From the NCBI GenBank assembly GCA_002255365.1, contig NCBI01000006.1, positions 18,742 through 82,741 of the forward strand: a stretch of DNA of 64,000 bases, written 5' to 3'. This document shows positions 3,852 through 53,446 of the stretch, piece after piece (position 1 is the stretch's first letter; each line of letters opens with the position of its first letter). The translations under genes were made by a program, and so were the position numbers. A model generated the notes under the pieces. It had not been told where the DNA came from and did no database searches. It saw only the letters and a list, made by a program, of their open reading frames with translations. The DNA comes from Chromatiales bacterium 21-64-14 (GTDB lineage: Bacteria > Pseudomonadota > Gammaproteobacteria > 21-64-14).

Positions 3852-3996
3852 GGGGCAATCTCCAGCGCCATGGTGCGCTGACTTTATCACGCGGGCTTGG
3901 GCAGGGTCCACGGCCGCCCGCGGAACGCGCGGGTGGCGGCACGATTTACGCAACCGGGGTAGCGTGTTCTAATGGCGCATCGATAAGATCTTCGGC

Positions 3997-4866
3997 ATGA
4001 TTCGCCGCGTTTGGAGGGATAAAGTGACCGAACAGCTGCCGGAAAAGGCCCAGAGCATGGCGGTGTTCTGCGATTTCGAGAACATCGCGCTTGGAGTCCG
4101 TGACGCGAAGTATGCGCAGTTCGACATCAACAAGGTGCTGGAACGGCTTTTGCTGAAAGGCAATATCGTTGTAAAAAAGGCTTATTGCGATTGGGAGCGA
4201 TACAAGGATTTCAAGCGCGCCATGCACGAGGCGTCGTTTGAGCTGATCGAGATTCCGCACGTGCGCCAGTCCGGGAAAAATTCGGCCGATATTCGGATGG
4301 TGGTGGACGCGTTGGATCTCTGCTATACCAAAGCGCACGTGAGCACCTTCGTGGTGATCAGCGGCGATTCGGATTTTTCTCCGCTGGTGAGTAAGCTGCG
4401 CGAGAACGACAAGGTGGTGATCGGGGTGGGGGTCAAGAACGCGACTTCCGATCTGCTGATCGCCAACTGCGATGAATTCATTTTCTACGATGACTTGGTG
4501 CGGGAGAAAGAGGGCCGTCGGCGTTCGCGCCGCAAACCCGCCGCCAAGGGTGCAGCGAAATCCGCCGAGGAGACGGAGACGGAGACGGTGCCGAAGTCCG
4601 ACGGCGAGAAGCAGCAGGACGCCCTGGACATGGTCATCGAAACGGTGGAGGCGCTGTTTACCGAACGCGGCGAGGAGGAAAAGATCTGGGGCTCCATGGT
4701 CAAGCAGACCCTGAAGCGGCGCAAACCGGGGTTCTCGGAGTCCTATTACGGGTTCCGCACCTTCAGCAAACTACTGGAGGAGGCGCAGACGCGCAATCTA
4801 CTGGAACTGGAGCGCGACGAGAAATCCGGCGGCTATATCATCCGCAGCTTCAACCATGAGGAATAA
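3997..4866 (+). CDS. NYN-domain (LabA-like) protein with C-terminal OST-HTH/LOTUS domain
   Basis: AVFCDFENIA...VVISGDSDFSPLV is a NYN nuclease-fold signature; a Lys/Glu-rich linker precedes the C-terminal YYGFRTFSKLLEE LOTUS-like domain; start may instead be ATG 4057. Confidence 0.7.
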   Translation: MIRRVWRDKVTEQLPEKAQSMAVFCDFENIALGVRDAKYAQFDINKVLERLLLKGNIVVKKAYCDWERYKDFKRAMHEASFELIEIPHVRQSGKNSADIRMVVDALDLCYTKAHVSTFVVISGDSDFSPLVSKLRENDKVVIGVGVKNATSDLLIANCDEFIFYDDLVREKEGRRRSRRKPAAKGAAKSAEETETETVPKSDGEKQQDALDMVIETVEALFTERGEEEKIWGSMVKQTLKRRKPGFSESYYGFRTFSKLLEEAQTRNLLELERDEKSGGYIIRSFNHEE

Positions 4867-8987: not shown

Positions 8988-9746
8988 TCAAAAATGATAG
9001 AACATGCCGGCGTAGGGACCTCGCCAAGTGATGTCCGCGTTAACATTCTGGAAGCCGTTCAACCGAATTTTCTGTCCGCGCCAGCCGATCTCGGCGCCGA
9101 GTCCCAGGCGGCTTTCGTAGGCGCCCTTCAGGGTGTAATCCAACAGCCGGCTGCCCGCATAGCGCGTGTAGCTCGCGTTTGCGCCTACCGAGGTTCCCGG
9201 GATCGGCAAGGGGATCACGGCATTCGCGTATAGCATGGGTACGGCACCCGAAACCCGCGTGCGCTCGAACTGAGTGCCGGACTGGACCTGTACATCACCG
9301 TTTAGGTACTTCACGTCCACGCCCAGATCCACCTGCATCCAAGTGCGGAGCAGCGAGTAATAGAGCACGGCATCGTATTGGTCGAGTGCCGCTTGGCTGG
9401 CGATGTTCTCGGACGTGGTGAATGTTGTTCCACCAAAGGTCAGGTCGCGGGACAAGGTACTGGCGCCGCCAGTGGAGGCATTGGTATAGACCAGGCGTAG
9501 GTTGGGGAGCAGCGGGATCGGGGATTCGAGGGTAAGCCATGCAAACGCCGCAGTGCGGCGCCCCAATCCGAGATCACGATTCAGGTCCAGGGTGTCGCCT
9601 TGGTACTGGACCGTCCCGCGCGGATCGTGATTCCATCCGCCAGCCCCGACCCAGACCGAGGGGGTGGCCGCGGCGGCGATGGAGACCAGGGCACTGCCTA
9701 GACCCAGGGACACCAGGGCGGCGATGTATTTCCAGTGACGTCCCAT
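8988..9746 (-). CDS. outer-membrane beta-barrel protein (signal peptide, C-terminal Phe)
   Basis: Signal peptide MGRHWKYIAALVSLGLGSALVSIAAAA; alternating amphipathic strands; terminal ...GMFYHF typical of OM barrel proteins. Confidence 0.5.
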   Translation of the reverse strand: MGRHWKYIAALVSLGLGSALVSIAAAATPSVWVGAGGWNHDPRGTVQYQGDTLDLNRDLGLGRRTAAFAWLTLESPIPLLPNLRLVYTNASTGGASTLSRDLTFGGTTFTTSENIASQAALDQYDAVLYYSLLRTWMQVDLGVDVKYLNGDVQVQSGTQFERTRVSGAVPMLYANAVIPLPIPGTSVGANASYTRYAGSRLLDYTLKGAYESRLGLGAEIGWRGQKIRLNGFQNVNADITWRGPYAGMFYHF

Positions 9747-10725: not shown

Positions 10726-10914
10726 ATGGCTGAAGGAAACGAAGTGCTGGTGGTTGCATCCAAAGTCAAAAACTATATTCGTGATAAGTCCGGGATGAAT
10801 ACCTCCGCCAGCGTGCTCGAAGTACTGTCCAACCGGTTGCGGGCCATCTGCGATCAGGCGATTGAGAACGCCCGCCGGGACGGACGCAAGACCGTCAAGG
10901 ACCGCGACGTCTGA
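10726..10914 (+). CDS. small histone-fold-like protein (DUF1931-like)
   Basis: ATG 10726 preceded by AGGAGA RBS; 62-aa product MAEGNEVLVVASKVKNYIRDKSG...VLEVLSNRL resembles bacterial DUF1931 histone-like proteins. Confidence 0.35.
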   Translation: MAEGNEVLVVASKVKNYIRDKSGMNTSASVLEVLSNRLRAICDQAIENARRDGRKTVKDRDV

Positions 10915-11630
10915 GAGTGATCGAGCGCCGCCGTTTCCGCGGCGCCGGATCTTGCTGTTTTCCTCGGCGTCAACTCGAGGACCCGTGGTGACGGATTGCG
11001 GCACTGTCCGATACCCCGCGCCGCGGGCCCGCACACCGCCGTCGTGCGGGTGGGGCGGTCTTTGTAACGGCAGGTTCCACCGGCTGGCCGGTCCCGGTGG
11101 ACCCGTTTCGGGCCGGTTTCTCTGGTTTGACCCCGGTCGACGTCCAGCGGATCGAGCAGCGCTGGCGTGCGTGCCTGGGACTCCGCAGCCGTGGGACCGG
11201 CAGGGCAGCTACCTTCATGATAAATAGCGCGGGCGGTGCCCGGGTAGCCGCCGTTCCGCCCCGGCGGATGCAGGTGATGCGCCCTTCCCGGGACATCGTG
11301 TTGCGGTTGCGGTAGGGTGTTTCGGACCTTGGTTTTCGGTCCGTATCATCGCGGTGCGCCCGCGTGGGCCTCATCGGATCGACACCCTGTCATCAATGGA
11401 CCCGCTCTGCGCGGCGTGGATTGCCGGGCCGTGCGCCCGACGGTGGCGGCACACCAGGCCGATGCCCCGGGGCGGAAGGCCCGGGGGCACGAACGCCGCG
11501 CCGACCCGGCGCGGGCATCGCGATCAGGTAATGAAACTCAGGGCCACCGCGCCTTGTAAGGAGCCTGGCCATTCCAGCGCGCCGCGCCGTTTCAAACCTC
11601 AGTAGGAGGAAGCCAAACCGGCGCCGGGGT

Positions 11631-12641
11631 GTGTCCGCCTGGGCGTCCCTGCCCAAGGACGAACTCCTGGATCTGCGAGTTTGCGACTTGGATCTGGAGA
11701 TCCAGGGTACCGATCTGGAGGCCCGGATCGCGCAGTTGTGCGCGGAGCTGGAGCAGCGCGGGTTCGTGTTCCGGCCCCATTTCTGGCTCTCCGACGACTG
11801 GTTCTGCCCGGACGGCGTCCCGGGGGTCGCCATTCCCTTTTACCTTGCCCATCCACGCCTCAAGCACCTGGAGCAGCGGCATATGCTGGAAGCCGAGGGC
11901 GGCACGCGGTCCTCCTGCATGAAGCTGCTGCGTCACGAGACCGGCCACGCCATCGCCAATGCGTACCTGGTTCACCGGCGCCGCGGCTGGCGCAAGCATT
12001 TCGGGAAATCGACCCAGACGTATCCGGACACCTATCTCCCCAAGCCATACAGCAAGCGCTACGTAATCCATTTGGATGACTGGTACGCTCAGAGTCATCC
12101 CGATGAGGATTGGGCCGAGACCTTTGCGGTGTGGTTGAAACCGCATTCGGGGTGGCGTACCCGATACCGGGGCTGGTCGGCGCTGCACAAGCTAGAATAC
12201 GTCGATGAACTGATGGATGAGATTCGGCTGCTACCGCCGCGGGTGCGCAACCGCAGACGCGTGGCGCCGGTACGCACGCTCCGGATGACCCTGCGTGAAT
12301 ACTACGAGGATAAGCAGTCGCGATACGGGGTCGACTATCCCGAGTTCTACGACCGTCATCTGCTGCGGCTTTTCTCCAATGATGAACAATACCGGAACAA
12401 CGAGCCGGCTTCCCATTATATCCGCCGGACGCGGGTCGAAGTACTCGGGATCGTGTCGCGCTGGACCAGCGAATACCGCTACCGCGTTGATCTTGTGATC
12501 CAGGAGATGATGCGGCGTTGTGATAAATTGGGTCTGCGCACAATCCGCGACGATCATCGGATGAAGCTGAACCTGACTTCCTGCTTGGTCATGATCGTAA
12601 TGAGCCACCTTCACAGCGGGAAATTCATGGTGGCCCTATGA
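11631..12641 (+). CDS. putative zinc-dependent metallopeptidase (HExxH)
   Basis: HETGH motif plus downstream DEDWAETFA; family known to pair with ATP-grasp ligases; GTG start. Confidence 0.55.
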   Translation: MSAWASLPKDELLDLRVCDLDLEIQGTDLEARIAQLCAELEQRGFVFRPHFWLSDDWFCPDGVPGVAIPFYLAHPRLKHLEQRHMLEAEGGTRSSCMKLLRHETGHAIANAYLVHRRRGWRKHFGKSTQTYPDTYLPKPYSKRYVIHLDDWYAQSHPDEDWAETFAVWLKPHSGWRTRYRGWSALHKLEYVDELMDEIRLLPPRVRNRRRVAPVRTLRMTLREYYEDKQSRYGVDYPEFYDRHLLRLFSNDEQYRNNEPASHYIRRTRVEVLGIVSRWTSEYRYRVDLVIQEMMRRCDKLGLRTIRDDHRMKLNLTSCLVMIVMSHLHSGKFMVAL

Positions 12642-13663
12642 GAAGGCTGCGAGTCATGTTGCTGGTTCACCCGAGCCTGATTCCCCCCGAAGGTGAGATC
12701 GACGTGACGGATCCGCGCATGCAGATCTACGAGACGGAATACGACGTTCGCAATGCGCTCATCGAGTTGGGGCATGAGGTCCGGGTCGTAGGCGTGTACG
12801 ACGATCTCGCTCCGATCCGGCAGACCATCGAGGAGTGGCGGCCGCATATTGCGTTCAACCTGCTGGAGGAGTTCGCGGGCCACGCGGATTTCGACTATTA
12901 CGTGGTGAGCTATCTCCGCATGATGGGGGTCCCCTATACCGGGTGCAAGCCGCGCGGTCTGGTGCTGGCCCGGGATAAGGCCTTGTCGAAGAAGATTCTC
13001 AAGTACCACCATATCCGGGTCCCCGACTTTGTGGTGTTCCCGCGCGGCAAGGTGCGGCGCAGACTCCCGCCGATCCGCTATCCTATGATCGTCAAGTCGC
13101 TGATCGAGCAGGGGTCGGTGGGGATATCGCGCGCCTCCCATGTGGAGAACGAGGCGCAACTCCGCGAGCGGGTGACGCTCATCCATGAGAAATTCGATTC
13201 CGATGCCATCGCGGAGCAATTTATCGATGGCCGCGAATTGTACGTGACAGTGGTCGGCAATACGCGTTTGGAGGTTTTCCCGATCCGCGAATTGACCTTC
13301 AGTAAGTTAGACGAAGGCGTGCCGCGGATGGCGACCTACAAGGTGAAATGGGACGCAAAATACCGCAAGCGGAGAGGAATCGACTATCAATTCGCCCGCA
13401 CCCTCGCGGAAGGGGTCCATGAACGCATTATCCGGTTGTGCAAACGCATATACCGGGTATTGGACCTGAGTGGCTATGCGCGCGTGGACCTGCGTCTTGA
13501 TACGCAAGGGCGGATTTTCGTTCTGGAGGCAAACCCCAACGCCGGAATCGCTCGCTCCGACGATTGCGCCTGGTCTGCGGAGAAGGCAGGTTTATCCTAC
13601 GGCCAATTCATCCAGCGCCTGCTGAGCCTTGGTCTCCGGGCCGGCCGCAACCGGGACGCGTGA
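12638..13663 (+). CDS. ATP-grasp enzyme, D-Ala-D-Ala-ligase-like (amide-bond forming)
   Basis: ATP-grasp fold motifs (PMIVKSLIEQGSVGIS, GYARVDLRL, FVLEANPNAG); 4-nt start/stop overlap with the upstream peptidase gene. Confidence 0.65.
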   Translation: MRRLRVMLLVHPSLIPPEGEIDVTDPRMQIYETEYDVRNALIELGHEVRVVGVYDDLAPIRQTIEEWRPHIAFNLLEEFAGHADFDYYVVSYLRMMGVPYTGCKPRGLVLARDKALSKKILKYHHIRVPDFVVFPRGKVRRRLPPIRYPMIVKSLIEQGSVGISRASHVENEAQLRERVTLIHEKFDSDAIAEQFIDGRELYVTVVGNTRLEVFPIRELTFSKLDEGVPRMATYKVKWDAKYRKRRGIDYQFARTLAEGVHERIIRLCKRIYRVLDLSGYARVDLRLDTQGRIFVLEANPNAGIARSDDCAWSAEKAGLSYGQFIQRLLSLGLRAGRNRDA

Positions 13664-13677
13664 ATATGACCGGTGGA

Positions 13678-13990
13678 TCACGATACCCGGTCAGCAGCCT
13701 CCATGTGCAGGAACTGGACCTCAGCGCCCGCCATGACGATGGTGCCCTGACGCCGGTTCTCGCCGGTGTCGCTGTATTCGAAGCCGTAGACGCGTGTCAA
13801 TTGCAGGTGACCGTCCCGATTCCGCTGCAGGCGCAGTCGGCGCAGGGAAACGGTGTCGTCCAGCAGCCGGGCCCCGAGGCCCGCGCAGGTTTCCGTGCAG
13901 ACACGGTTCGCGGCTTCCCGGGCGCGCATGGTATCGCGCCACGCCCAGACAATCATTCCCAGCAGCAGCAATCCCGCGAGTGGCAGCATG
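13678..13990 (-). CDS. DUF3301-like small membrane protein
   Basis: Internal ATG 13990 gives ~103 aa with an N-terminal TM helix (MLPLAGLLLLGMIVWAW); the longer frame to 14214 is Arg-rich and implausible. Confidence 0.4.
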
Positions 13991-14207
13991 GTGGCGGGTT
14001 CGGTGACCTTGGTCGTCGGTCGGGCGCCGGGGCCCGGCGGCGTGTGCAGGGAGCGCCATTCGCGTCCCCGAGACATGACTATATCATGACGGCCGTGGCC
14101 GCCGGCGTCGGCGCGGGTCCGGGGGTAGCGGAGCGGCGGGGGCCTCCAAGCGTAAAACATTGCACTGGTGTGTGCTTGCCATCCCAACGACGACGAACGG
14201 TGGATAT

Positions 14208-15230
14208 ATGACAACGAACGATTTGGAGTGGCGTGAACAGGCCGCGGCCCAGCTGCACGGTACGCTGGCGCTGAGCGTGGCCTATATAGGAGTGGTAAAT
14301 GGTCTGTTCGCGGCCCTGGATGACCTGGATGGTGCGGGGCCGACGGTGCTTGCTAAGACCGCCGGCATGGATGTGGGCTACGTTACCCGTTGGTGCGACG
14401 CGGCCTACGCCTTCGGCCTCCTGGATGAGGCCGATGCGGCGCGCTTTACGGTCACGGAACTGGGCCGCGCCTACCGGGGTAATTCCTTGGGGACGCTGAT
14501 GCCCTTCGCGGTCCGGGCCATGTTGTCGACCCACATGGCAGAGCGGGCCGCCGCACTGATGCGCAGCGGGGAGCGTCCCGGGGATGGGGTGCTCGCGGAG
14601 CGGGAGACGGTGGTGCCGTGGTTCGGCCCGATGCTAGAACACCAGTTCGGAGGTTTTTTCGAGCGGGAGATCCTTCCGAGCCTGCCTGCCTACCGGGAGG
14701 TGGACCGGCGCGGTGGCCTGGCGGTGGATCTGGGCTGCGGGAACGGCTGGTATGTGCGTCGCCTGGTGGCCCGATACCCGGGATTGCGCGGGCTCGGTCT
14801 GGACGCCATGGCCGAGAACATCACCCAGGCTGCTGAGTTGGCGCAGGCGGCCGGGATCGCCGACCGCCTGCGCTTCGAGACCGGGGATATCCATGATTTC
14901 CAGTCCCTGGAGCCGGCGGATCTGATCGCCATGAACCGAGCCCTGCACCACGTGTGGCACGACCGGGAGAACGTGTTTCGCATCATCCACGACCACCTCA
15001 AGCCCGGTGGGTACGCTGTGATCTGGGAGCCGAACTGGCCCGTGGAACGTTCGGCCTTGCGTATGCCTGGGCGCGCAGGCATGGCATTCCAGAACTTGGC
15101 CGAACACGTGCAGGGCAACCACCTCTTGCGTCCCGACGAGATCGCCGCGCAGTTCCGCAAGGTCGGCATGGAGCCTGAGATCTACCTGTTCGCCGATGGT
15201 GGCGAAGCGGTGATTACCGCCGTGCGGTGA
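14208..15230 (+). CDS. class I SAM-dependent methyltransferase with N-terminal dimerisation/winged-helix-like domain (O-methyltransferase-like)
   Basis: LAVDLGCGNGW motif I, acidic motif II, and IHDHLKPGGYAVIWE; start ATG 14208 (MTTNDLEW). Confidence 0.6.
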   Translation: MTTNDLEWREQAAAQLHGTLALSVAYIGVVNGLFAALDDLDGAGPTVLAKTAGMDVGYVTRWCDAAYAFGLLDEADAARFTVTELGRAYRGNSLGTLMPFAVRAMLSTHMAERAAALMRSGERPGDGVLAERETVVPWFGPMLEHQFGGFFEREILPSLPAYREVDRRGGLAVDLGCGNGWYVRRLVARYPGLRGLGLDAMAENITQAAELAQAAGIADRLRFETGDIHDFQSLEPADLIAMNRALHHVWHDRENVFRIIHDHLKPGGYAVIWEPNWPVERSALRMPGRAGMAFQNLAEHVQGNHLLRPDEIAAQFRKVGMEPEIYLFADGGEAVITAVR

Positions 15231-16671
15231 GTGGCGGCTGCTGCGGGGCAGACGGCGGAGACGCTGCGCCGGCGCGGCCCGGAGTGTCGCCGGGCGGCTT
15301 TGGCGGCGGATGGCGAAACATGGTGACGACGTCGAACATCAGACCCGAAAGTGCGTGGAAGCGCATGACCCGGAAGACCAGCGTAGGCAAGGACATCGCC
15401 CGCACCGTACGGACCTCCCGCAAGCGGGGAAGGAACGCGATGGCCACCGTGGCGCGTACCAGCGTGGAGACGAGAAATACGCCGTACAGCACACTGATCC
15501 AGCGTATTTCATGTCCGGCGACGGTGAAGCGGGTGGGCAGTGCACTGGCCAGCCAGGCGCCCAGCATGGCGCCCAGGAACAGACCCACGTTGACCAGTGT
15601 GTTGTGGAAGGCCAGGTAGGTGGTGCGTTTGGGGCTCGGTACAAGATCGTATAGAAAATTTCCGGAACTCAGACTGTAACCCGCCCAACTCAGACCCGCC
15701 AATATCTGCACGGCGATCAGGTACCAAAAGCTGGTGGAGACCAACCACAGGGCGGGTAGAAACGGAATCAGCGACCCGGTGAGCGCGAGGATCAAGCGAT
15801 TTCCGAACGCGTCGCTGATCCGGCCCCAGGTGTTCAGGGTCAGGATCTGGACGACCACGGCGGTGGCGGTGTTGGCCATGAATTGCAGATAGGAGAAATG
15901 CAGGTCCCGCAGCATATAGACAGTGAAAAACGGAGACGCGATGGATACCGCGAACTGCATCAGGAACACGAACAGCGAAAAGCGCAGGAACGACGATTTG
16001 CGCGCGCGTTTCAGCCAGCCGCCGGCCACCAGTTCCTGGACCATGGGGTGGCGGGGCGGTTCGTGCATGCGTGCCAGATGATAGATCGAGACCAAGCGCG
16101 CCACCGCCGCGGCCGCGAAAACCAGGAGATAACCGGTCACGGTGCTTCCGGCCCGGTCGAAGCCGTCTAGCACAAGACCGGCGCTTACCAGGGCCAGGAA
16201 TGCCATTACTGTCGCGTAGCGAGTGCGTCGCCCGAAGTAGCGGCCGCGTTTGCGTTCCGGGACCAGGTCGCCCATCAGGCTGGTCCACTGCGGTGCGATG
16301 AGGTTTCCACACATGTAATAGACCGTGACGCATCCGATCAGGATCATGACGGCGTGGTTTCGGAACAGGAGTGGAAGGAGCGCGAGCGGAAGCCAGGTCA
16401 GGGCCTGGAGTCCGGCACCGGCCAGGATGAGAGTCTTGCGCCGGGGGATGCGCCGTCCCAGCCACGCGGACAGCAACTGGGCGAAGGATCCCAGCAGTGG
16501 CGGCAGGGCAGCGAGCAGCGCGATCTGTTCGGTGCTGGCCTTGAGCAGCAGCGCAAAGGCGGACAGGTAGGTCTCGCCGCCGCCGGACATGACCGAATAG
16601 GCCGCAGCATCACGTACCGAGTGCCGTAGCGAGCGGTCAACCTGGGGGTCTTTCGAATACTGGTGAGTCAC
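15214..16671 (-). CDS. MFS transporter
   Basis: ~12 predicted TM segments; MFS-type loop motif GxLxDRxGRR-like (LGRRIPRRKTL). Confidence 0.7.
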   Translation of the reverse strand: MTHQYSKDPQVDRSLRHSVRDAAAYSVMSGGGETYLSAFALLLKASTEQIALLAALPPLLGSFAQLLSAWLGRRIPRRKTLILAGAGLQALTWLPLALLPLLFRNHAVMILIGCVTVYYMCGNLIAPQWTSLMGDLVPERKRGRYFGRRTRYATVMAFLALVSAGLVLDGFDRAGSTVTGYLLVFAAAAVARLVSIYHLARMHEPPRHPMVQELVAGGWLKRARKSSFLRFSLFVFLMQFAVSIASPFFTVYMLRDLHFSYLQFMANTATAVVVQILTLNTWGRISDAFGNRLILALTGSLIPFLPALWLVSTSFWYLIAVQILAGLSWAGYSLSSGNFLYDLVPSPKRTTYLAFHNTLVNVGLFLGAMLGAWLASALPTRFTVAGHEIRWISVLYGVFLVSTLVRATVAIAFLPRLREVRTVRAMSLPTLVFRVMRFHALSGLMFDVVTMFRHPPPKPPGDTPGRAGAASPPSAPQQPPLTARR

Positions 16672-27632: not shown

Positions 27633-28400
27633 CTAGTTCCTTCCTGCAATGACGCCCCCATCCACGTCCCATATTGCGCCCGTTACCCAAGCGGCTTTGC
27701 TGGAAAGCAGAAAGCATATGGTGTTGGCGACATCGTCCGGGACACCGATACGTCCGATGGGATGAAAGGCATTGAATGTCGCCAGTGTGGCGTCGATTTG
27801 CTTCGGGTCGATAAAGGCTTCGTATATGGGTGTCTTGACGACCGCGGGTGAGACTGCATTGACACGGATATTGTGGTCGGCCAGTTCCATGGCCATATGC
27901 TGGGTGAGTGAATGGAGGCCTGCCTTTGCCATTGAATAGGCTGACGACGGCGTGGCTTTAATGGCTTGCTTCGCCCACATGGAGCCGATGTTCACGATCG
28001 AGCCACCGCCATGGGTCACCATGTTCTTCGCGACAGCTTGGGAGATAAAGAATAGGGCCTTGTTCAGCGCCATGTAGGTTTCATAGTCCTCCTCGGAGTG
28101 CTCCAGGAAAGGGGTGGGCTTGAAATAGCCAGCCGCGTTTACCAGATACTTGATATGACGGTTATGATCGTTGGCTAGCGCCGTAACGCGTGCGATGCCG
28201 GAGGGCTCATAGAGGTTCGCTTGCAAGGGCTCGATTACGCCATAGTTGGATAGCGCCGCGATGGCGTGCTCGAGCTTTTTTGCGTCGTTGCCGACGATCA
28301 CTGCTTTAGAGCCGGATTCGAGTAGTTGCTTGGCTACGGCATAACCAATGCCGCTTGAACCGCCCACAATCATTGCCCATGCTGCGTTTGACGTGGTCAT
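27633..28400 (-). CDS. SDR-family oxidoreductase
   Basis: [11 protein letters not shown] Rossmann motif; catalytic YxxxK (YSMAKAGL); lower GC (~55%) than surroundings. Confidence 0.75.
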
Positions 28401-28530
28401 CTTTATCTCCTGGTGAATGCGTAGAGGCCGTGGGCGCCACTTTAGTGGCGGCGGTATACTATTGAAAGCCGGTGCAAAGCCATTGGGTAGGCAGTTTTCG
28501 GCGCATTTTCATGAAAAACATAGGGAATAA

Positions 28531-28854
28531 ATTTTCCCGGACGTCAGTGCCGGAACGTACTGCCCGGATGGTGGAGGCCATTTACGGCGCAAGTGGTTAC
28601 TTGCCGCCTACAATTTACAGGCAAATGAGATCAACCGGCCAGACGAGATGGTTCGATCTGTCGAGGGTCTTTCGACGGAGGTATTGAACGAGTGTCTGAG
28701 GCGGAACGTCGAGTTTGGAATTCTGGAACGGGTTGCATTCGCTGAGGTTCCGCCCCGGGCGGAATATAGGGTGACGCCATTCAAGGAGAAATTCCTTCGC
28801 ATTCTCGATGAGCTTGAGAAGTTGCAGGACAAGATTGAAAGTGAGCCGTTGTAG
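28531..28854 (+). pseudogene. HxlR-family winged-helix regulator lacking a canonical start (probable pseudogene or non-canonical initiation)
   Basis: C-terminal half EVPPRAEYRVTPFKEKFLRILDELEKL matches the HxlR consensus; the upstream in-frame segment (from the stop at 28528) encodes a CPDGG...KW HxlR-like N-term but has no ATG/GTG/TTG; first ATG is 28648; divergent from the SDR as typical for HxlR. Confidence 0.4.
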
Positions 28855-29007
28855 TGACATCGAGCGCAGACGCCGCAAGTTTGGCGTTGGAGTTCCTGCC
28901 GCCCATAGGCGGTTGCCACACGAGCTTCCGGCGACGCTGTTGTTTGCCGGAATGGGAAAAAAAAGGGGAGTCTCGTAGGGTAACGTGCGAATAGTGGAAT
29001 AGGGGGG

Positions 29008-29646
29008 GTGACTGTGATTACGAAAATGACAGGTCAAAAGATGGGGATTGGGGCCGCAACGAGCAACGACCCGCGGCCCAATGGCGACAAATATTCTACG
29101 TGCAGCAATCTCCCATTGCGGGTAGGCCGCAGAATCCGCGCGATTCAGTATCTTGTTGTTGGCCTATCCATCACGGTGGTCCAGCCGGCATGGTCCGCGG
29201 GACCTGATCTGAAGCCCGGGCTTTGGGAATATGCAACGTCCATCAAGGGGGCGGGTGTTGTTATGCCGGACCTGAGCAAACTGCCTCCGGAGCAGCGCGA
29301 GAAATTTCGCAAGGCGTTGATACAAATGGAAACTGAGCCGCGCAACATCGCGCTAAAAATTTGTTTGACCGAGGAGAAGATAAAGAGCATGGATTTCTCT
29401 GCGCGGAAAAAATCTCCCCACTGCACGCAAAGCGTGACGCAGGACGGGTCGGGGAAGTGGACCGAGACGTCGCATTGTGTGACGGACGGGCAGGCACAGG
29501 ATTCGGTTGTTAAAATTCATGTACTGAATCCCACCCATGTGACGAGTGCCGGTCAGGTTACCGTCACACGGGGCGCGCAGGTCCATAAATCGGAATTTCG
29601 TCAGGATGGTAAATGGGTGAGTGCCGATTGCGGCGGCGTGAAATAA
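29008..29646 (+). CDS. hypothetical secreted protein (possibly DUF3617-like)
   Basis: Hydrophobic signal-like segment AIQYLVVGLSITVVQPAWSAGP then PGLWE motif; Cys-containing C-terminal domain; low GC. Confidence 0.35.
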   Translation: MTVITKMTGQKMGIGAATSNDPRPNGDKYSTCSNLPLRVGRRIRAIQYLVVGLSITVVQPAWSAGPDLKPGLWEYATSIKGAGVVMPDLSKLPPEQREKFRKALIQMETEPRNIALKICLTEEKIKSMDFSARKKSPHCTQSVTQDGSGKWTETSHCVTDGQAQDSVVKIHVLNPTHVTSAGQVTVTRGAQVHKSEFRQDGKWVSADCGGVK

Positions 29647-30042
29647 GTAGCCACATGATGCGGGATGGACTTGGTGTTGGAAGGCCCGCAGCGGGTCTAA
29701 GTAGCGTTGGTGGGGCGGTGGGCTGAGCTGAGCGGAGGGCCCGAGTTGGGAACCAACTTACTATCAATACCCGTTGCGCTACGTTCTAACTAATGGCTTG
29801 GCAGCTTCGTCGGAACACGCGGCACTTTTGCGCTTGCAGTTGGCCATGGCGTTGGGCGGAATACGCAGCACGGCACGGGTTTGGATGTATTCGGGCGGCT
29901 TTTGTGCGGAAGTTGTTGGCTGGGCCTGGTACCATTTTCCGCCAGATAACATGACCGCGAATTGGTGTTGGCGTGCGTGGGATTAACGGTAGCAGATGAA
30001 GCGCTCCTCCTCTCCTGCTGGTTCGGAGCGCTTAGAAGTAAA

Positions 30043-30118
<76 letters not shown>

Positions 30119-46863: not shown

Positions 46864-47122
46864 TCTTGCATTGAGTCTCATGCGAGCTGCTGCGTGGCTC
46901 GCCGTTCTCCTCGGCGAAGGGATGCGACCGTGACGGCAGAACACGGAAATACGAGCCCGGCCGGTCCGAATGCCTGCCGTATACCCGCACGTCAGCCAGC
47001 GCCGGTGCCCATGCGCCGCGTGGTCACCGAGTTGCGGCCAGATTGCGCCTGGCCTGGCCGGTGGTCGGAATCCCTTAGTGGCGCTCGCGCCTGTCTCGCG
47101 CCAAACACGTGGGTCCCAAACA

Positions 47123-50100
47123 ATGGATGCGGATGAATTGTTGATCGCTTGTGTGGCGGAAGACCGTCGTGATCACCACATCAAGGTCGCGAATCTGGTC
47201 GGTACGATCAGGTCTTTCGGCGGGAGTTTAGCGAGCGCTCGAATCGCGGTTAATTACGTCGAGTCTGTCGATTCCGGAATCCGCGCATCGCTCGAGGAAG
47301 CGGGTGCCGATGTGAGGGTCGTGCCGCGGTTTGATCCGCGCTGTCCGCATGCCAACAAGCTTCGTATGTTGGAACAGGTGGCAGGTGTGGGCCTGCTCGT
47401 CGCCATGGATGTCGATATGGCTGTGGTTAGGGACTTCCGCTCACAACTCCACACGGGTGGGATAAGCGCCAAGATCGTCGATCTTAATCCCTTGAGTGAG
47501 ACGCAGTGGCACCAGCTTTTTGACTACGCAGGGCTGCCGATGCCCGGGCAGCGATACGTATGTAGTTCCGATGGTGGCGTGGTCCCCCCGTATTTCAATA
47601 GTGGCCTGCTTACCATTCCAGTGCAGTGGATATCGTCCCTGCGCGCGAGCTGGGGTGCATACGTGGCATGGCTGCTCGACGCCAGAATGGACCTGCCTTG
47701 GCTTGAACAGCACGCGTTCTTTACCGACCAACTGGCACTCGCCCTCGCACTGCAGGCGATCCAGTGCCCGGTAATACCACTGCCGATTGAAATGAACTTC
47801 CCAACCCATATACCAGTGGCACCCAACTTCCATCCGGACGATGTAGAGCCATATATAGTTCACTACCATGACCGCGTGAATGCGGACGGAACCTTGGGTC
47901 TTACGGCTTACCGTGCACCCAATCTGGGGATCAAGCGGGTAAACGAATCGATTATAGGCAACATAACCCTCGGCGATGCCGGTACAGCATCGGACCGATT
48001 CAGTAATTCGGTGTTCTGGGAAAAACATTATCGAGACGCGCCTGATCTCGGTTCCGGGGTCGGATCGCGGGCGCAGTTTGCGCGGTATAAGAGCGTGATT
48101 ATTGACCAGCTCACGCAGGAAATGGGGCCTGCCAGTGTGTTGGATGTGGGTTGTGGTGATCTCGCATCAGTCGCGGGCCGACCATGGCCCGAATATACCG
48201 GAATTGACATAGCAGGATGCGTAATAGAGCGCAATCGAACGGCATTTCCGCATTGGAAGTTTCTCCCCGGCGATTTTCTGGAGTTATCTGAGAGTGCTGA
48301 CATCGACGCGGATTTGGTGCTGTGCTTTGACGTCCTGATCCATGAGCATGACCCAATCCGATATGAACAAATTGTTGGGAAATTGCTTCGATCGACAGGC
48401 CGCTGCCTGATGATCGGAGGGTACGACTCCCCCCCATTGCAACGGTACTCCAGTGGGATTAACGCGTTTCATGAACCGCTGTCGGATACCCTTCGCCGCT
48501 ACGGCGTGACTCGAATTGTACGGATTGGTGGCTACCGGGGGGTGACCATGCTGCGGGTAGACCTCGACGATGGGTTGGTCACTCCGCAGCGTAGGCGTAG
48601 TGAAAAAGACGACGATCGGGGGTTCGCGATATTGCGCAGCGGCACGCGGGATGACACGACGCCGGACCGGCCGCAGGAATCCAGTATTACCTCGGGCGTG
48701 GCGAAGGTTTCCTCAGCGCACATGAGTCCGGAACCGGTAGCTGAAGGTGAATCCCCTGAGGTTGGGGATATGCCACAAGCCATCCTCATTGTCGGGATGC
48801 ATCGCAGTGGAACGTCAGCGCTGGCGCGGGTGTTGAACCTGCACGGTGTCCGTCTCGGATCCCGGATGATCCCCCCTCAGGACGATAATGCGCGCGGGTT
48901 CTGGGAGCATCCCGCTGTCATGGCGCTAAATGAACGTGTGTTGGCGTATTTCGGAGGAGCATGGGATCGTCCTGGTCCACTGAGGAATGATGGCCAGAGT
49001 CTGGAGGAGTTCACGGCACTGTTGAACGATGCAGCGACATTAGTGGACGGCGAGTTCTCGGCTACGAAGCTTTGGGGCATCAAGGACCCGCGCTTGTGCC
49101 GTACGCTCCCGTTTTGGCACCGCGTGCTGGAGCGCGCGCGGACTGAGTCGCGGCACGTTCTTGTCATCCGTAACCCGCTGGAAATCGCTGCCTCCTTGGC
49201 GAAGCGAGATGGGTTCTCGCAGACGAGGTCACTTCTGCTCTGGTTCAGATATCTTTTGGACGCCGAGCACGACAGCCGTGGCACCAAGCGCGTCTTTATT
49301 ACCTACGAGCAATTACTCGGTGATTGGAGAAGCGCGATTCGGCATCTTGCCTCCGGTCTTGGAGTCGTCCTGGATCCGGAGACGGAAACCGTCGCGCGTC
49401 GCGTGGAGGCCTTCCTTTCTCCGCAGCTGCGGCATCACCACATGAGGCGACCGCCCACGGTCCAAGACCACGCCCGGTTGGGCCCGCTGGCCGCCGAGTT
49501 CTATGATGCCTTACTCGCAGCGTCACACGGTGATGAAAGTGGACTCGCTGACCTGGATCGGTTGCGGTCGGATATTGAACTTCTGGAGCAGGATTTTAAC
49601 CATAAGAATGCAGCTCCCGAATCCACATCGGGCGCAATACGGAGCATGGTAGAGCCGGAGGCAATCCTTCGCCAGTTGGGCCGGCCGTTACGCGTCGGGA
49701 TCCTTTCTACCGAGAGGAAGGAATGGGGGTGCGCGCACATTCGTCTAGTCAGCCCATTGGCATCTCTCCAGAAGCAGGTGGAGGTCATCTGGGCGGTCCC
49801 TGAAGCGGACGCAACCGCGAGGATCGATTTCGAGCTGCTCGATTCCGCCGATTTGTTTGTTGTCCAAAGGTTCTTCCCATCCGCGGTCAACATGGAGTTG
49901 ATCCGGCTGTTGTTGTCTTCGGGAAAGCCGGTGATCTACGAGGCCGACGACCTCGTAACGGCGATTCCGGAGGCTAACCCTGGGTACGCCGTGGCAGCGG
50001 CAATGCGGCCGTATATTCTGGAAACGGTGACGTCCGTGCATGCGCTGACGGTTTCGACGGAAGAGCTGCGGCGGGCTTTTGCGTCGTACAACAGCAATAT

Positions 50101-53100
50101 TTATATTTTGCCAAACCTGCTGGATGACCGTTTGTGGAATCGGGAGCCGGTCGACGGGAGCGCCGTAGTCGTGATCGGCTATGTCGGCACCTGGACCCAC
50201 CTGGATGACTTGGAAATCATCGAGCCGGCACTCGAAATCATTGCGAAAATATATGGTAGCCGCGTACGGTTCGAATTCGCTGGCTGCATCTCAGAGCGTC
50301 TGAGGGGGCTGCCCAATCTGACGGTGCGAGAGTTTCAGCCGGGCTACGCTGCTTATGCACAGACCCTGCAGGGCCTTGGCGTTGACATCGCGGTGGCGCC
50401 GCTTCGTGATACCGCGTTCAACCGGGTAAAGAGCAATATTAAATGGCTGGAATATTCCGCCTGCGGGATCGCGGGTGTCTACTCAGCAGTTCCGCCCTAT
50501 GTTGCGGACGTGGTGCATGGGGAAACGGGTTTGCTGGCAGGGGAGGATGTGGATGAATGGGTCAATGCGATCGCGAGTTTGGTGGAAAGCCGGGACCGGC
50601 GATTGGCGATCGCTGGTAAGGCGCGGGAACGGGTGTTGGCCGACTACACGGCGAGCCGTGGCGCCCGATCCTACCTTCAGGCCTATGTGGACGTGCTTGC
50701 TAACTTCCAAACCAGACCAAATCGCATGCCGCAGATATCGGCTGAGTACGAGCTTTGGCGGGAGCGCCGTTCCCACAGGGTAGCGACGAGGTTGGACGGG
50801 CTCCGCGATGCGCCCGCCATTCATCTCATCGTCTGCCTCCACGAGGGACAGGAGGCGGCGCTAGCCGATACCGTTGATACGCTCGCCGCGCAGACCTACG
50901 GTGGATGGGGCCTTAGTGTTGTCGCGGATTTTCCATGCCGACAGCCGGACTTCGAGGCGCTGCCGATGTGCGAATGGGTAGCGTCCGACGGCGAGTTCCA
51001 GGATACGGTAAATCAGCTTGTGGCCACTTCGCAGGCTGATTGGTTGGCGCAGATCGATGTCGGAGACCGCTTCGATGCGTCCTTGCTTGCCAGCTTGGCG
51101 CACTACTTGGCTCTGTTCGGCGATTGGCGGGTGGTTTATGTGGATGAAGATGTATGGTTGGCGGACGGGCGCCGTGTCGCCCCTAAATTCAAGCCGGATT
51201 TCAACTTAGATTTGCTTCGTTCTACACCCTATGTAGGCGCCCTCTGTTTCGTGCGCAGGGATGTGTTGGTCGCGATCGGAGGATTTTCGGGCGGGGATGG
51301 CCTAAGCCGAACGTATGATACCGTGCTGCGAGTGCTGGAACATTCGGGGGAAAAGTCGGTCGGTCATGTGCCAGATTTACTTTTCCACCGCAGTGGCGGC
51401 AATGCTGCCGCAGTGGATTTCGCCGCCTCACACGGTGTATGTCGAAGACATCTGGAAGCGCATCTGCAGCGTTGTGGCGTGCACGCGGTTGTTCATCAGG
51501 GTCGTGCCGAGGGTACCCAGTTTATCGAGTATCCAGTGGGCGAACACTGCCGCGTGTCTGTGGTGATCCCCACCGATGGACGTTTGCGGTTTCTTGAGCC
51601 ATGTATCCGGACGGTACTTTCCAACACGGAGTACCCGGACCTCGAAGTCGTCGTGGTGACCGGAACGGAACAGGATCCTAGCCTGGGCCAGTGCCTGTAC
51701 GAACTAATGGCTTGCGACAACCGGGTGCGTGTGGTTTCGAGCGGCGGAGAAAATGGGGTTACGGCGGCTCTGGACGCGGGGGTCCGGGAGGCGTCAGGAG
51801 AATATGTGCTGCTGTTGCACGACGACACATTGATAGTCCAGAAGGACTGGTTGAGCCGGATGGTATCCCTCGCCAAGCGCGACGACGTTGGTGTCGTAGG
51901 GGTAAGGCTGGTGTTCCCTGACCAGCGGATACAGAACTCGGGGATCATCCTGGGCGGCGGCCCCTGGGGCGTTGCGGAGTGCCGGGATGTTGGGAAAACG
52001 CTGACGGACCCAGGGTACCTGGGGCGTCTTGCCTGCGTCCAGGACCTTTCCGCGGTTAGCGGGGCTTGTCTGATGATCCGCGCTGAACTGTACCGACAGG
52101 TCATGGCGACCGAGATGGCGGCGGCGGGACATTTCTGGGATGTGGCCTTGTGTCTGCGAGTGGGTAGGTTGGGGTACAAGGTGGTGTGGACCCCGTACGT
52201 GACGGTGGTCCACCATCATACATCCGTGCGTGAGGCGTGTGATGCTGATCGGCACGGGATCGAGCGGGACGCGGCGCGGATGCGGGCACAGTGGCTGGGA
52301 CGACTTGCGAGTGACCCGGCCTATAACCGCAATCTTTCGCTCACGGGTGGGGGTTGGCGCCCGGATGTAAACCTTTTTTGTCCGTGGGATCCGGCACTCC
52401 GTGAGGACCACCGGATCGTCGGGGTCGGGGCCGGCTCCTACGGATCCTGGCGCTATCGCCTCGCGGATCCCCTGGCGGGCCTCGAGGGCGCAGGGCGTGC
52501 CCGCCCGATGGTCGTCGAGTATTACAGTGAGACAGCGCCCATGCCTACGGTGACGGAGCTCGCGCGGTTAGGGCCCGATACCCTCTTCATGCACAACGCT
52601 GTTCACGATTCGCAGATTGCCCTCATCAAGGAGTACAGGGAACTCCGCCAGGGATTCGTGGTGTTCGGGCAGGACGACCTGATGTTCGAGCTTCCCGGGA
52701 AAAATCCCTTCCAGAAAACCGTGTTCAAGGACATCAAGCGCCGGCTGCGGACCTGTATTGGTTTGGCGGACCGCTTGGTCGTGACGACGGAACCGTTGGC
52801 AGAGGCCTACCGGGAGTGGGCCCAGGATGTGCGGATCGTGCCGAACTATCTCGAACGCTCGGTCTGGGGCGCACTTCGGTCAGAACGCCGGACCGCGCGG
52901 CGACCCCGGGTTGGCTGGGCGGGGGCAATGCAGCACGGTGGGGATCTGGAGCTCCTGATCGAGGTAGTGAAAGAAACCGCGGGTGAATTGGATTGGGTGT
53001 TCTTTGGGATGTGTCTGGAGGAACTGCGGCCATTGGCGGCAGAACTGTGCCCGGCGGTGGCTTTTGACGACTATCCCAAGGTGCTGGCACGGCTGAACCT

Positions 53101-53446
53101 GGACTTGGCTGTCGCTCCTCTGGCGCGCAACCGTTTCAACGAGGCCAAGAGCAATCTACGGATCTTGGAGTACGGGGCGTTGGGGTGGCCGGTGGTGTGC
53201 AGCGATATCCAACCCTACCGGGATGCGCCGGTATGTCGCGTGCCTAACAACTCGCGGGCGTGGATCGAGGCGATCCGGGAGCGCGCCCACGACCTGGACG
53301 CGGCGGCGGTGGAGGGAGACCGGTTGCGGGACTGGGTCCTGAGGGATTGGATGCTTGAGGATCACCTGGAGCAATGGCTGGAGGCGCTGGTTTGTCCCGG
53401 GGCGGCGGTGGGCGGGGCGGACATTCAGGCACACGGAGGTGGCTGA
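47123..53446 (+). CDS. giant multidomain protein: DxD domain + class I SAM-methyltransferase + sulfotransferase + GT-B-like + two GT2 + second GT-B-like domain (candidate flagellin glycan synthesis/modification enzyme)
   Basis: Single 2158-codon ORF (46970..53446); likely start ATG 47123. VLDVGCGDL (MTase motif I) ~48.1 kb; GMHRSGTS (PAPS 5'-PSB) ~48.8 kb; GT2 DxD/VVIPT regions ~50.8-52.2 kb; repeated AVAPL..N..KSN...LEY.A.G motif at ~50.4 and ~53.1 kb. Lies between flgL and fliC where Pseudomonas carries its flagellin glycosylation island. Confidence 0.7.
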   Translation: MDADELLIACVAEDRRDHHIKVANLVGTIRSFGGSLASARIAVNYVESVDSGIRASLEEAGADVRVVPRFDPRCPHANKLRMLEQVAGVGLLVAMDVDMAVVRDFRSQLHTGGISAKIVDLNPLSETQWHQLFDYAGLPMPGQRYVCSSDGGVVPPYFNSGLLTIPVQWISSLRASWGAYVAWLLDARMDLPWLEQHAFFTDQLALALALQAIQCPVIPLPIEMNFPTHIPVAPNFHPDDVEPYIVHYHDRVNADGTLGLTAYRAPNLGIKRVNESIIGNITLGDAGTASDRFSNSVFWEKHYRDAPDLGSGVGSRAQFARYKSVIIDQLTQEMGPASVLDVGCGDLASVAGRPWPEYTGIDIAGCVIERNRTAFPHWKFLPGDFLELSESADIDADLVLCFDVLIHEHDPIRYEQIVGKLLRSTGRCLMIGGYDSPPLQRYSSGINAFHEPLSDTLRRYGVTRIVRIGGYRGVTMLRVDLDDGLVTPQRRRSEKDDDRGFAILRSGTRDDTTPDRPQESSITSGVAKVSSAHMSPEPVAEGESPEVGDMPQAILIVGMHRSGTSALARVLNLHGVRLGSRMIPPQDDNARGFWEHPAVMALNERVLAYFGGAWDRPGPLRNDGQSLEEFTALLNDAATLVDGEFSATKLWGIKDPRLCRTLPFWHRVLERARTESRHVLVIRNPLEIAASLAKRDGFSQTRSLLLWFRYLLDAEHDSRGTKRVFITYEQLLGDWRSAIRHLASGLGVVLDPETETVARRVEAFLSPQLRHHHMRRPPTVQDHARLGPLAAEFYDALLAASHGDESGLADLDRLRSDIELLEQDFNHKNAAPESTSGAIRSMVEPEAILRQLGRPLRVGILSTERKEWGCAHIRLVSPLASLQKQVEVIWAVPEADATARIDFELLDSADLFVVQRFFPSAVNMELIRLLLSSGKPVIYEADDLVTAIPEANPGYAVAAAMRPYILETVTSVHALTVSTEELRRAFASYNSNIYILPNLLDDRLWNREPVDGSAVVVIGYVGTWTHLDDLEIIEPALEIIAKIYGSRVRFEFAGCISERLRGLPNLTVREFQPGYAAYAQTLQGLGVDIAVAPLRDTAFNRVKSNIKWLEYSACGIAGVYSAVPPYVADVVHGETGLLAGEDVDEWVNAIASLVESRDRRLAIAGKARERVLADYTASRGARSYLQAYVDVLANFQTRPNRMPQISAEYELWRERRSHRVATRLDGLRDAPAIHLIVCLHEGQEAALADTVDTLAAQTYGGWGLSVVADFPCRQPDFEALPMCEWVASDGEFQDTVNQLVATSQADWLAQIDVGDRFDASLLASLAHYLALFGDWRVVYVDEDVWLADGRRVAPKFKPDFNLDLLRSTPYVGALCFVRRDVLVAIGGFSGGDGLSRTYDTVLRVLEHSGEKSVGHVPDLLFHRSGGNAAAVDFAASHGVCRRHLEAHLQRCGVHAVVHQGRAEGTQFIEYPVGEHCRVSVVIPTDGRLRFLEPCIRTVLSNTEYPDLEVVVVTGTEQDPSLGQCLYELMACDNRVRVVSSGGENGVTAALDAGVREASGEYVLLLHDDTLIVQKDWLSRMVSLAKRDDVGVVGVRLVFPDQRIQNSGIILGGGPWGVAECRDVGKTLTDPGYLGRLACVQDLSAVSGACLMIRAELYRQVMATEMAAAGHFWDVALCLRVGRLGYKVVWTPYVTVVHHHTSVREACDADRHGIERDAARMRAQWLGRLASDPAYNRNLSLTGGGWRPDVNLFCPWDPALREDHRIVGVGAGSYGSWRYRLADPLAGLEGAGRARPMVVEYYSETAPMPTVTELARLGPDTLFMHNAVHDSQIALIKEYRELRQGFVVFGQDDLMFELPGKNPFQKTVFKDIKRRLRTCIGLADRLVVTTEPLAEAYREWAQDVRIVPNYLERSVWGALRSERRTARRPRVGWAGAMQHGGDLELLIEVVKETAGELDWVFFGMCLEELRPLAAELCPAVAFDDYPKVLARLNLDLAVAPLARNRFNEAKSNLRILEYGALGWPVVCSDIQPYRDAPVCRVPNNSRAWIEAIRERAHDLDAAAVEGDRLRDWVLRDWMLEDHLEQWLEALVCPGAAVGGADIQAHGGG

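Follow-up and report, generated by a model that had tools for sequence, protein, structure and literature searches.

A widespread, translationally coupled pair of zincin and ATP-grasp ligase genes that may make and cut an amide bond on a peptide or protein

A 64,000-nucleotide stretch of contig NCBI01000006.1 from Chromatiales bacterium 21-64-14, hereafter the window, carries two genes encoding a zinc metallopeptidase of the HExxH (zincin) type and an ATP-grasp enzyme resembling the D-Ala-D-Ala ligase Ddl. The pair is a widespread two-enzyme unit that is co-inherited, translationally coupled and not part of cell-wall housekeeping, and a functional link between the peptidase and ligase genes is well supported. 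More tentatively, we propose that the two enzymes form a cytoplasmic, chromosomal unit that makes and cuts an amide bond on a peptide or protein encoded elsewhere. Pairing an ATP-grasp ligase with a peptidase is an established design, which recurs for cell-wall dipeptides, cyanophycin, the tailing of S6 and tubulin, and glutathionylspermidine. The pair described here resembles these known ligase/hydrolase pairs in its working, yet it lies outside the named families with which it was compared.

The pair was first described by a model given only the DNA (the sequence-only reading), as a 336-residue HETGH metallopeptidase overlapping a 341-residue ATP-grasp enzyme by 4 nucleotides; the coordinates, the lengths and the ATGA of the overlap were all verified (Table 1). 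Both of its family assignments were correct, the Pfam matches (Peptidase_Mx and Dala_Dala_lig_C) and the fold matches being in agreement. The two open reading frames (ORFs) have a strong bias toward G+C (GC) at the third codon position, with GC by codon position of 0.63/0.41/0.76 in the peptidase gene and 0.63/0.39/0.77 in the ligase gene, and are therefore genuine genes; each product has thousands of homologs. The GTG at 11631 is the sole possible start of the peptidase, because an in-frame TAG at 11604-11606 is followed by no alternative start codon and because the conserved N-terminal Trp is then residue 4. The only Shine-Dalgarno-like sequence for this gene, AGGAGG at 11605-11610, lies unusually far from the start, 20 nucleotides before the GTG. 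On inspection, both proteins lack a signal peptide and hydrophobic segments.

When one genome per species was scanned, relatives of the peptidase turned up in at least 590 of them. The loci analyzed were the best 80 of these at least 590, together with the closest relative, L081, whose peptidase is 80% identical to that of the window. The best 80 have peptidases 51-65% identical to the window protein and come from Gammaproteobacteria (Acidiferrobacterales, Muproteobacteria, Thiohalophilus and others), Nitrospirota, Planctomycetota, Acidobacteriota, Methylomirabilota (Methylomirabilis) and Nitrospinota; across phyla, both proteins are about 45-70% identical. Conservation of the two genes as neighbors had been named as a check on the pairing, and they are indeed conserved: by tblastn, the ligase gene is directly downstream of the peptidase gene in 71 of the 80 loci and in L081, hence in 72 of 81 loci spread over at least six phyla, and an identical 4-nucleotide stop/start overlap (ATGA or GTGA) is present in 62 of the 72 loci with an adjacent ligase. 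In two look-ups that started from ATP-grasp homologs, the gene immediately upstream was in both cases that of the peptidase. Mere co-transcription of two genes that serve unrelated pathways is highly improbable, since the 4-nucleotide overlap is kept in 62 loci across phyla while the other neighbors change. Such retention is hard to explain other than by selection for co-expression. What speaks for mere co-transcription is that the genes are separated in nine Acidobacteriota loci (L031, L047, L051, L064, L068, L072, L075, L076 and L077), so that adjacency is not obligatory. In one of these, L047, a fragment of a ligase gene lies 10 kb away at the edge of the locus. An alternative ligase was sought downstream of the peptidase in these nine exceptions, and the genes there (M28 peptidase, HD-GYP-like protein, TonB receptor, MacB and aconitase) are all unrelated.

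No third gene is conserved with the pair. De novo clustering of ORFs of at least 60 residues, from about -7 to +8 kb, returned only clade-specific synteny (TraB/GumN, MipA and chorismate synthase; Acidiferrobacterales) and a generic ABC-ATPase cluster, and no small ORF of 18-90 residues is conserved within 700 bp on either side (75 and 63 loci). Because there is neither a third conserved gene nor a conserved small ORF, the substrate is taken to be encoded elsewhere. The same results bear on the proposal that the pair belongs to a graspetide-like cluster for peptides made on the ribosome and then modified post-translationally, or to a mobile conflict or defense system. Combinations of ATP-grasp enzymes and peptidases do occur in graspetide loci (PMC8939145). 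In contrast to graspetide systems, no precursor-peptide gene lies by the ligase here, as the search for small ORFs indicates. In contrast to known anti-phage systems, neither the peptidase nor the ligase matches a PADLOC defense model, and no relative of the peptidase occurs among 72,556 records of plasmids and 50,697 of phages. This proposal is largely refuted and is the least probable of those considered.

The peptidase consists of a zincin catalytic domain and a helical C-terminal domain (Table 1). Conservation reaches 97% or more at residues H102, E103, H106, Y152, H156, E159, D160 and E163 in 82 sequences drawn from several phyla, and the full gluzincin motif set is present: HExxH, a downstream Glu and a Tyr seven residues before it. 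In PPEP-3, the oxyanion Tyr190 and the third zinc ligand Glu197 are spaced Tyr-x6-Glu (PMC12828418), and the spacing of Y152 and E159 in the peptidase is the same. On the strength of this spacing and of the fold, Y152 is predicted to be the oxyanion Tyr and E159 the third zinc ligand. Because the HExxH motif is conserved together with a Tyr-x6-Glu at the PPEP-3 spacing, the peptidase looks catalytically complete.

The family affiliation of the peptidase is looser than its active site might imply. Its Pfam match, to Peptidase_Mx (PF15887) at 32.1 bits against a cutoff of 27, covers only residues 100-170, corresponding to profile positions 90-165 of 236. In a permissive Pfam scan, 49 of 49 members of the peptidase family matched Peptidase_Mx and nothing else notable. 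NCBIfam has no model for the peptidase, and no meaningful relative was found by sequence among solved structures. The top fold matches are PPEP and lethal factor; this M34-like resemblance is a weak similarity, with no Pfam ATLF match. Grouped at 50% identity, the family falls into 2758 clusters (934 at E <=1e-30), nearly all of them single-domain proteins of 335-350 residues.

A second feature of the peptidase is its charge. The core is basic throughout the family, with a median isoelectric point (pI) of 9.3 and a net charge of about +10 (82 sequences), and in the window protein the charge is located in the C-terminal domain (pI 9.7). Many gammaproteobacterial and planctomycete orthologs are also extended at the N-terminus by Lys/Arg-rich tails, from 10 to more than 140 residues long (up to 141), which at the extreme exceed 55% Lys plus Arg and are reminiscent of the tails of histone H1 and ribosomal proteins; examples are found in L004 (about 3913-4215), in L011 (upstream of 9393), in L012 (upstream of 10001) and in P0095 (residues 1-110). 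The Nitrospirota and Acidobacteriota peptidases have acidic or neutral N-termini, and the window peptidase has no tail. Both the basic domain and the tails suggest that the enzyme acts at or close to a polyanion, for which the ribosome, the nucleoid, polyphosphate and an acidic peptide are examples.

At first inspection, the ligase looks like a Ddl. It has an ATP-grasp fold in the three-domain arrangement of Ddl, matches the Pfam domain Dala_Dala_lig_C at 101 bits against a cutoff of 24, and has Ddl and VanA as its top matches in both sequence and fold. Its homologs are 335-386 residues long with ATP-grasp as their only Pfam domains, and the ligase, with a median pI of 7.8, is close to neutral. 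NCBIfam has no model dedicated to it, and it scores under every curated Ddl and Van cutoff: 131.1 bits against 243 for the best Ddl model, NF002378, and 112 against 245.65 for TIGR01205. The RimK model TIGR00768 gives 37 bits against a cutoff of 143.

The ligase family was aligned to Escherichia coli DdlB by MAFFT and by hhalign, at 24-28% identity, and conservation was scored in 66 sequences. The catalytic residues of Ddl are retained: K97, K144, S151, E180, E187 and K215 correspond to K114, K153, S160, E193, E200 and K237 of the ligase and, like the counterparts of R255, D257, E270 and N272 (Table 1), are 98-100% conserved. The omega loop carries a 4-residue insert, so that the counterpart of Ddl Y216 is ambiguous, being either Y242 (97%) or W238 (91%); K237 itself is 100% conserved, and position 245 is Lys or Arg in 97%. 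The pockets are altered. Residues S281 and L282 of Ddl hold the carboxylate of the second D-Ala (D-Ala2), and in their place the ligase has an acidic pair, position 308 being Glu or Asp and position 309 Asp or Glu in 66 of 66 sequences. Ddl S150, a member of the Glu15-Ser150-Tyr216 triad, is replaced by Gly or Ala at ligase position 159. Residues 1-79 cannot be aligned to Ddl, and the counterpart of Glu15 is unassignable, with E34 (100%) and D/E25 (97% acidic) as candidates; judged from the alignment, the N-terminal domain, which in Ddl builds the site for the first D-Ala, is remodeled in the ligase. Going by these residues, the ligase does not make D-Ala-D-Ala, and its amine partner is probably cationic or devoid of a free carboxylate, because the acidic pair replaces the D-Ala2 carboxylate pocket.

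That the ligase is neither a Ddl nor a RimK is well supported, by the curated thresholds and by the specificity residues. The sequence-only reading had held that orthology of the ATP-grasp enzyme to housekeeping Ddl or RimK would undo its account of the pair; such orthology is not what we find, the scores being below the cutoffs and the D-Ala2 residues replaced. The name D-alanine--D-alanine ligase, under which the ligase appears in many database entries, is contradicted by the residue analysis.

These results also make it very unlikely that the pair is a cell-wall module, in which a second D-Ala-D-X ligase and a D,D-peptidase, in the style of VanA/VanX or Ddl/DdpX, would remodel or recycle peptidoglycan. 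The ranking of Ddl and VanA as top matches favors this idea, as do those database entries that say D-alanine--D-alanine ligase. Arguing against it, the ligase falls far under every Ddl and Van model cutoff, S281-L282 have given way to acidic residues and S150 is lost, and the partner is a lethal-factor-like zincin rather than an M15 dipeptidase of the VanX type. Moreover, the conserved neighbors include no mur, fts or vanH gene, and the window pair is flanked by genes for a histone and a DUF3301 protein. In E. coli, ddlB sits between murC and ftsQ; here the sole conserved neighbor of the ligase is the zincin.

How the two enzymes might work together follows from their predicted chemistry. Because its catalytic residues are fully conserved, the ligase is expected to act as Ddl does, with ATP and Mg turning a carboxylate into an acyl-phosphate that an amine would then attack. 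As a writer, it would extend a peptide or protein by one or a few residues; as an eraser, the zincin would remove or trim the residues so added; and the coupling through ATGA would hold the two activities in fixed proportion. The cleft of PPEP-type enzymes binds about six residues, an extended peptide being clamped against an edge strand (PMC12828418). Because a fold of this type clamps such a peptide, what the zincin cuts is, by analogy, probably a peptide chain and not an amide as small as a dipeptide. The basic core (pI 9.3, +10) and the Lys/Arg tails suggest, in addition, association with a polyanion or macromolecule. Our preference is accordingly for a peptide or protein over a small molecule as the substrate.

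The alternative to which this preference refers is a small-molecule synthetase and amidase. Here the ligase would couple a carboxylate, such as an amino acid, to a small cationic amine (a polyamine, a diamine or a basic amino acid), and the zincin would hydrolyze the conjugate, on the model of glutathionylspermidine synthetase/amidase, carnosine synthase/carnosinase or cyanophycin synthetase/cyanophycinase. We regard this as possible but doubtful, and prefer the writing and erasing of residues on a peptide or protein. What zincins of the PPEP/lethal-factor type bind is an extended peptide some six residues long, not an amide the size of a dipeptide; neither a basic C-terminal domain nor Lys/Arg tails would be expected if the enzyme acted on a metabolite that is itself cationic; and the glutathionylspermidine synthetase and cyanophycin synthetase families gave no Pfam match.

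Several points weigh against the preferred reading, in which residues are added to and removed from a peptide or protein. The nearest relatives of the ligase, Ddl and VanA, join free amino acids, which favors a small-molecule product. The basic tails are missing from the window peptidase and from the peptidases of Nitrospirota and Acidobacteriota, and in the nine Acidobacteriota loci listed above the genes are not adjacent. The residue equivalences with DdlB rest on an alignment of low identity. Finally, both the substrate and the idea that the two enzymes share one bond are things that we infer.

A narrower version of the preferred reading takes the pair to be, by analogy, a bacterial counterpart of the tubulin tyrosination cycle, with reversible, ATP-dependent addition and removal of residues on a conserved housekeeping protein bound to a polyanion. 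This version is unlikely. Its target could be a ribosomal or nucleoid protein and, conceivably, the HBb-type histone encoded upstream of the pair in the lineage of the window. If true, it would mean an unrecognized post-translational "tail code" spanning at least six bacterial phyla.

The features of the locus are collected in Table 1.

Table 1. Coordinates of the gene pair, its coding and protein features, and its upstream region in the window
Feature	Position	Strand	Remarks
Histone-fold gene	10726-10914	+	62 aa; strong AGGAG ribosome-binding site
GC-rich hairpin after the histone gene	~10924-10946
Non-coding spacer	10915..11630	+	716 bp; 69% GC
Zinc metallopeptidase gene	11631..12641	+	336 aa; GTG start; from the ORF listing
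N-terminal zincin catalytic domain	residues ~1-184 of the peptidase
HETGH zinc-binding/catalytic motif	11934..11948	+	residues 102-106 (H102, E103, H106); translation verified
YAQSHPDEDWAE block	12084..12119	+	Y152, predicted oxyanion Tyr; E159, predicted third zinc ligand
C-terminal domain, basic, all-helical	residues ~185-336 of the peptidase
ATGA overlap	12638..12641	+	ligase start codon on peptidase stop codon, seen in the sequence; translational coupling
ATP-grasp ligase gene	12638..13663	+	341 aa; ATG start; from the ORF listing
Omega-loop region KWDAKYRKR	13346..13372	+	K237 equivalent to Ddl K215; hhalign against DdlB
Catalytic/Mg-binding R282, D284, E297, N299	13481..13534	+	Ddl R255, D257, E270, N272; 98-100% conserved
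Acidic pair D308-D309	13559..13564	+	at the position of Ddl S281-L282; hhalign

The pair is preceded by a spacer whose GC by codon position is flat (0.69/0.70/0.69) and which is therefore non-coding; the flanking genes have about 60% GC. The leader of about 700 bp reported by the sequence-only reading is thus indeed gene-less, but it is not conserved, since L081 has 134 bp in its place and about 580 bp are absent there. Because it is shortened in this closest relative, the spacer is not part of the conserved unit. A riboswitch, a small RNA and a mobile element were each considered for it and rejected: it has no Rfam match and no sigma-70-like site, it folds no more strongly than its shuffles (z -0.17), and it contains no repeats and has no relatives in the window or the loci. 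The leader is lineage-specific and carries no weight for the function of the pair. It may derive from a decayed gene or from an insertion.

Upstream of the spacer, the 62-residue histone-fold protein matches the solved histone of Bdellovibrio bacteriovorus (8cmp and 8fvx; E ~7e-14) and is of the Bd0055 or HBb type. Its gene is also present in L081 (5678-5866), 134 bp upstream of the peptidase gene, and by tblastn in 0 of the 80 other loci within 10 kb. As an argument for the histone as substrate, adjacency was rejected, the synteny being lineage-specific and confined to the window and L081. Upstream of the histone gene lies a gene for an outer-membrane beta-barrel protein of the TIGR04219 family (8988-9746, minus strand; 178 bits). 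The order TraB/GumN-like, outer-membrane protein, histone, peptidase, ligase, DUF3301 is common to the window and L081. The DUF3301 gene (13678-14214, minus strand) converges on the ligase gene with 14 bp between the stop codons, as it does in L081; the 5' end of its ORF is probably over-extended, the Pfam match covering residues 81-172.

Elsewhere in the window, a gene for an S-adenosylmethionine-dependent methyltransferase (14160-15230, plus strand), with a weakly Rv2258c-like winged-helix N-terminus, converges with a 17-nucleotide overlap on a gene for a major facilitator superfamily transporter (15214-16671, minus strand). The only tRNA gene of the window, tRNA-Ala CGC (30043-30118, minus strand), stands beside a segment at 28001-30118 with a GC of 0.55 against about 0.63 and a GC skew of 0.17, which may be an integrated element. 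An ORF of 2158 residues is found at 46970-53446 (plus strand).

At least 590 species-level genomes carry the pair, as do thousands of metagenomic sequences, and identity between phyla is about 50-65%. Its carriers include nitrite oxidizers, sulfur oxidizers, planctomycetes and soil acidobacteria; conservation that extends to the 4-nucleotide overlap implies that the pair serves some basic function in the cells of many bacteria of environmental importance. Full-text searches, which did not cover the likeliest place of a prior mention, the amidoligase survey of Iyer et al. 2009, found no literature on the pairing of this peptidase and ligase. A paper on Klebsiella CfmP was considered as a prior account and set aside, as it concerns TupA-like enzymes. 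The description of the pairing as poorly characterized in the sequence-only reading holds up, with neither a dedicated NCBIfam model nor a paper from these searches. Both proteins are small, soluble and well modeled, and their function is directly testable in vitro.

Comparison with known systems places each enzyme near, but outside, a named group. Anthrax lethal factor and the PPEPs (ATLF-like, MEROPS M34) are secreted (PMC12828418), whereas the window peptidase has, by inspection, no signal peptide and carries, in addition, a C-terminal domain of about 150 residues that is basic and helical. Peptidase_Mx, represented for example by 4l7a (BACCAC_01431 of Bacteroides caccae, from structural genomics), is a family with no known function that the peptidase matches in the region of the active-site helix alone; the peptidase here belongs to a separate, tightly conserved subfamily that has a C-terminal domain of its own and an ATP-grasp partner. 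The ligase, for its part, differs from Ddl and VanA in its low identity, its omega-loop insert, its unalignable N-terminal domain, its coupling to a zincin and its location outside a cell-wall cluster.

Among two-enzyme systems, VanA/VanX and Ddl/DdpX are alike in that a ligase of the Ddl fold is genetically linked with a zinc peptidase. VanX and DdpX are M15 dipeptidases without an HExxH motif, whereas the partner here is an HExxH-plus-Glu zincin of lethal-factor/PPEP-like fold, and there is no VanH-type dehydrogenase. Cyanophycin synthetase fuses its ATP-grasp domain to a Mur-ligase-like domain, whereas the window ligase is a single ATP-grasp enzyme of 341 residues. With glutathionylspermidine synthetase/amidase the likeness is a functional analogy only, neither window protein having a GSP_synth-type or CHAP Pfam match. 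The tubulin tyrosine ligase with its detyrosinating peptidases, like glutathionylspermidine synthetase/amidase, combines an ATP-grasp enzyme and an opposing hydrolase to set the steady-state level of one amide bond, and the two systems serve as working analogies for the pair. RimK, the polyglutamylase of ribosomal protein S6, is an ATP-grasp enzyme that adds residues to a protein terminus and is linked to a protease in some bacteria. RimK and its operon partners are the model for the reading that we prefer, in which one enzyme of the pair would write residues onto a peptide or protein and the other would erase them.

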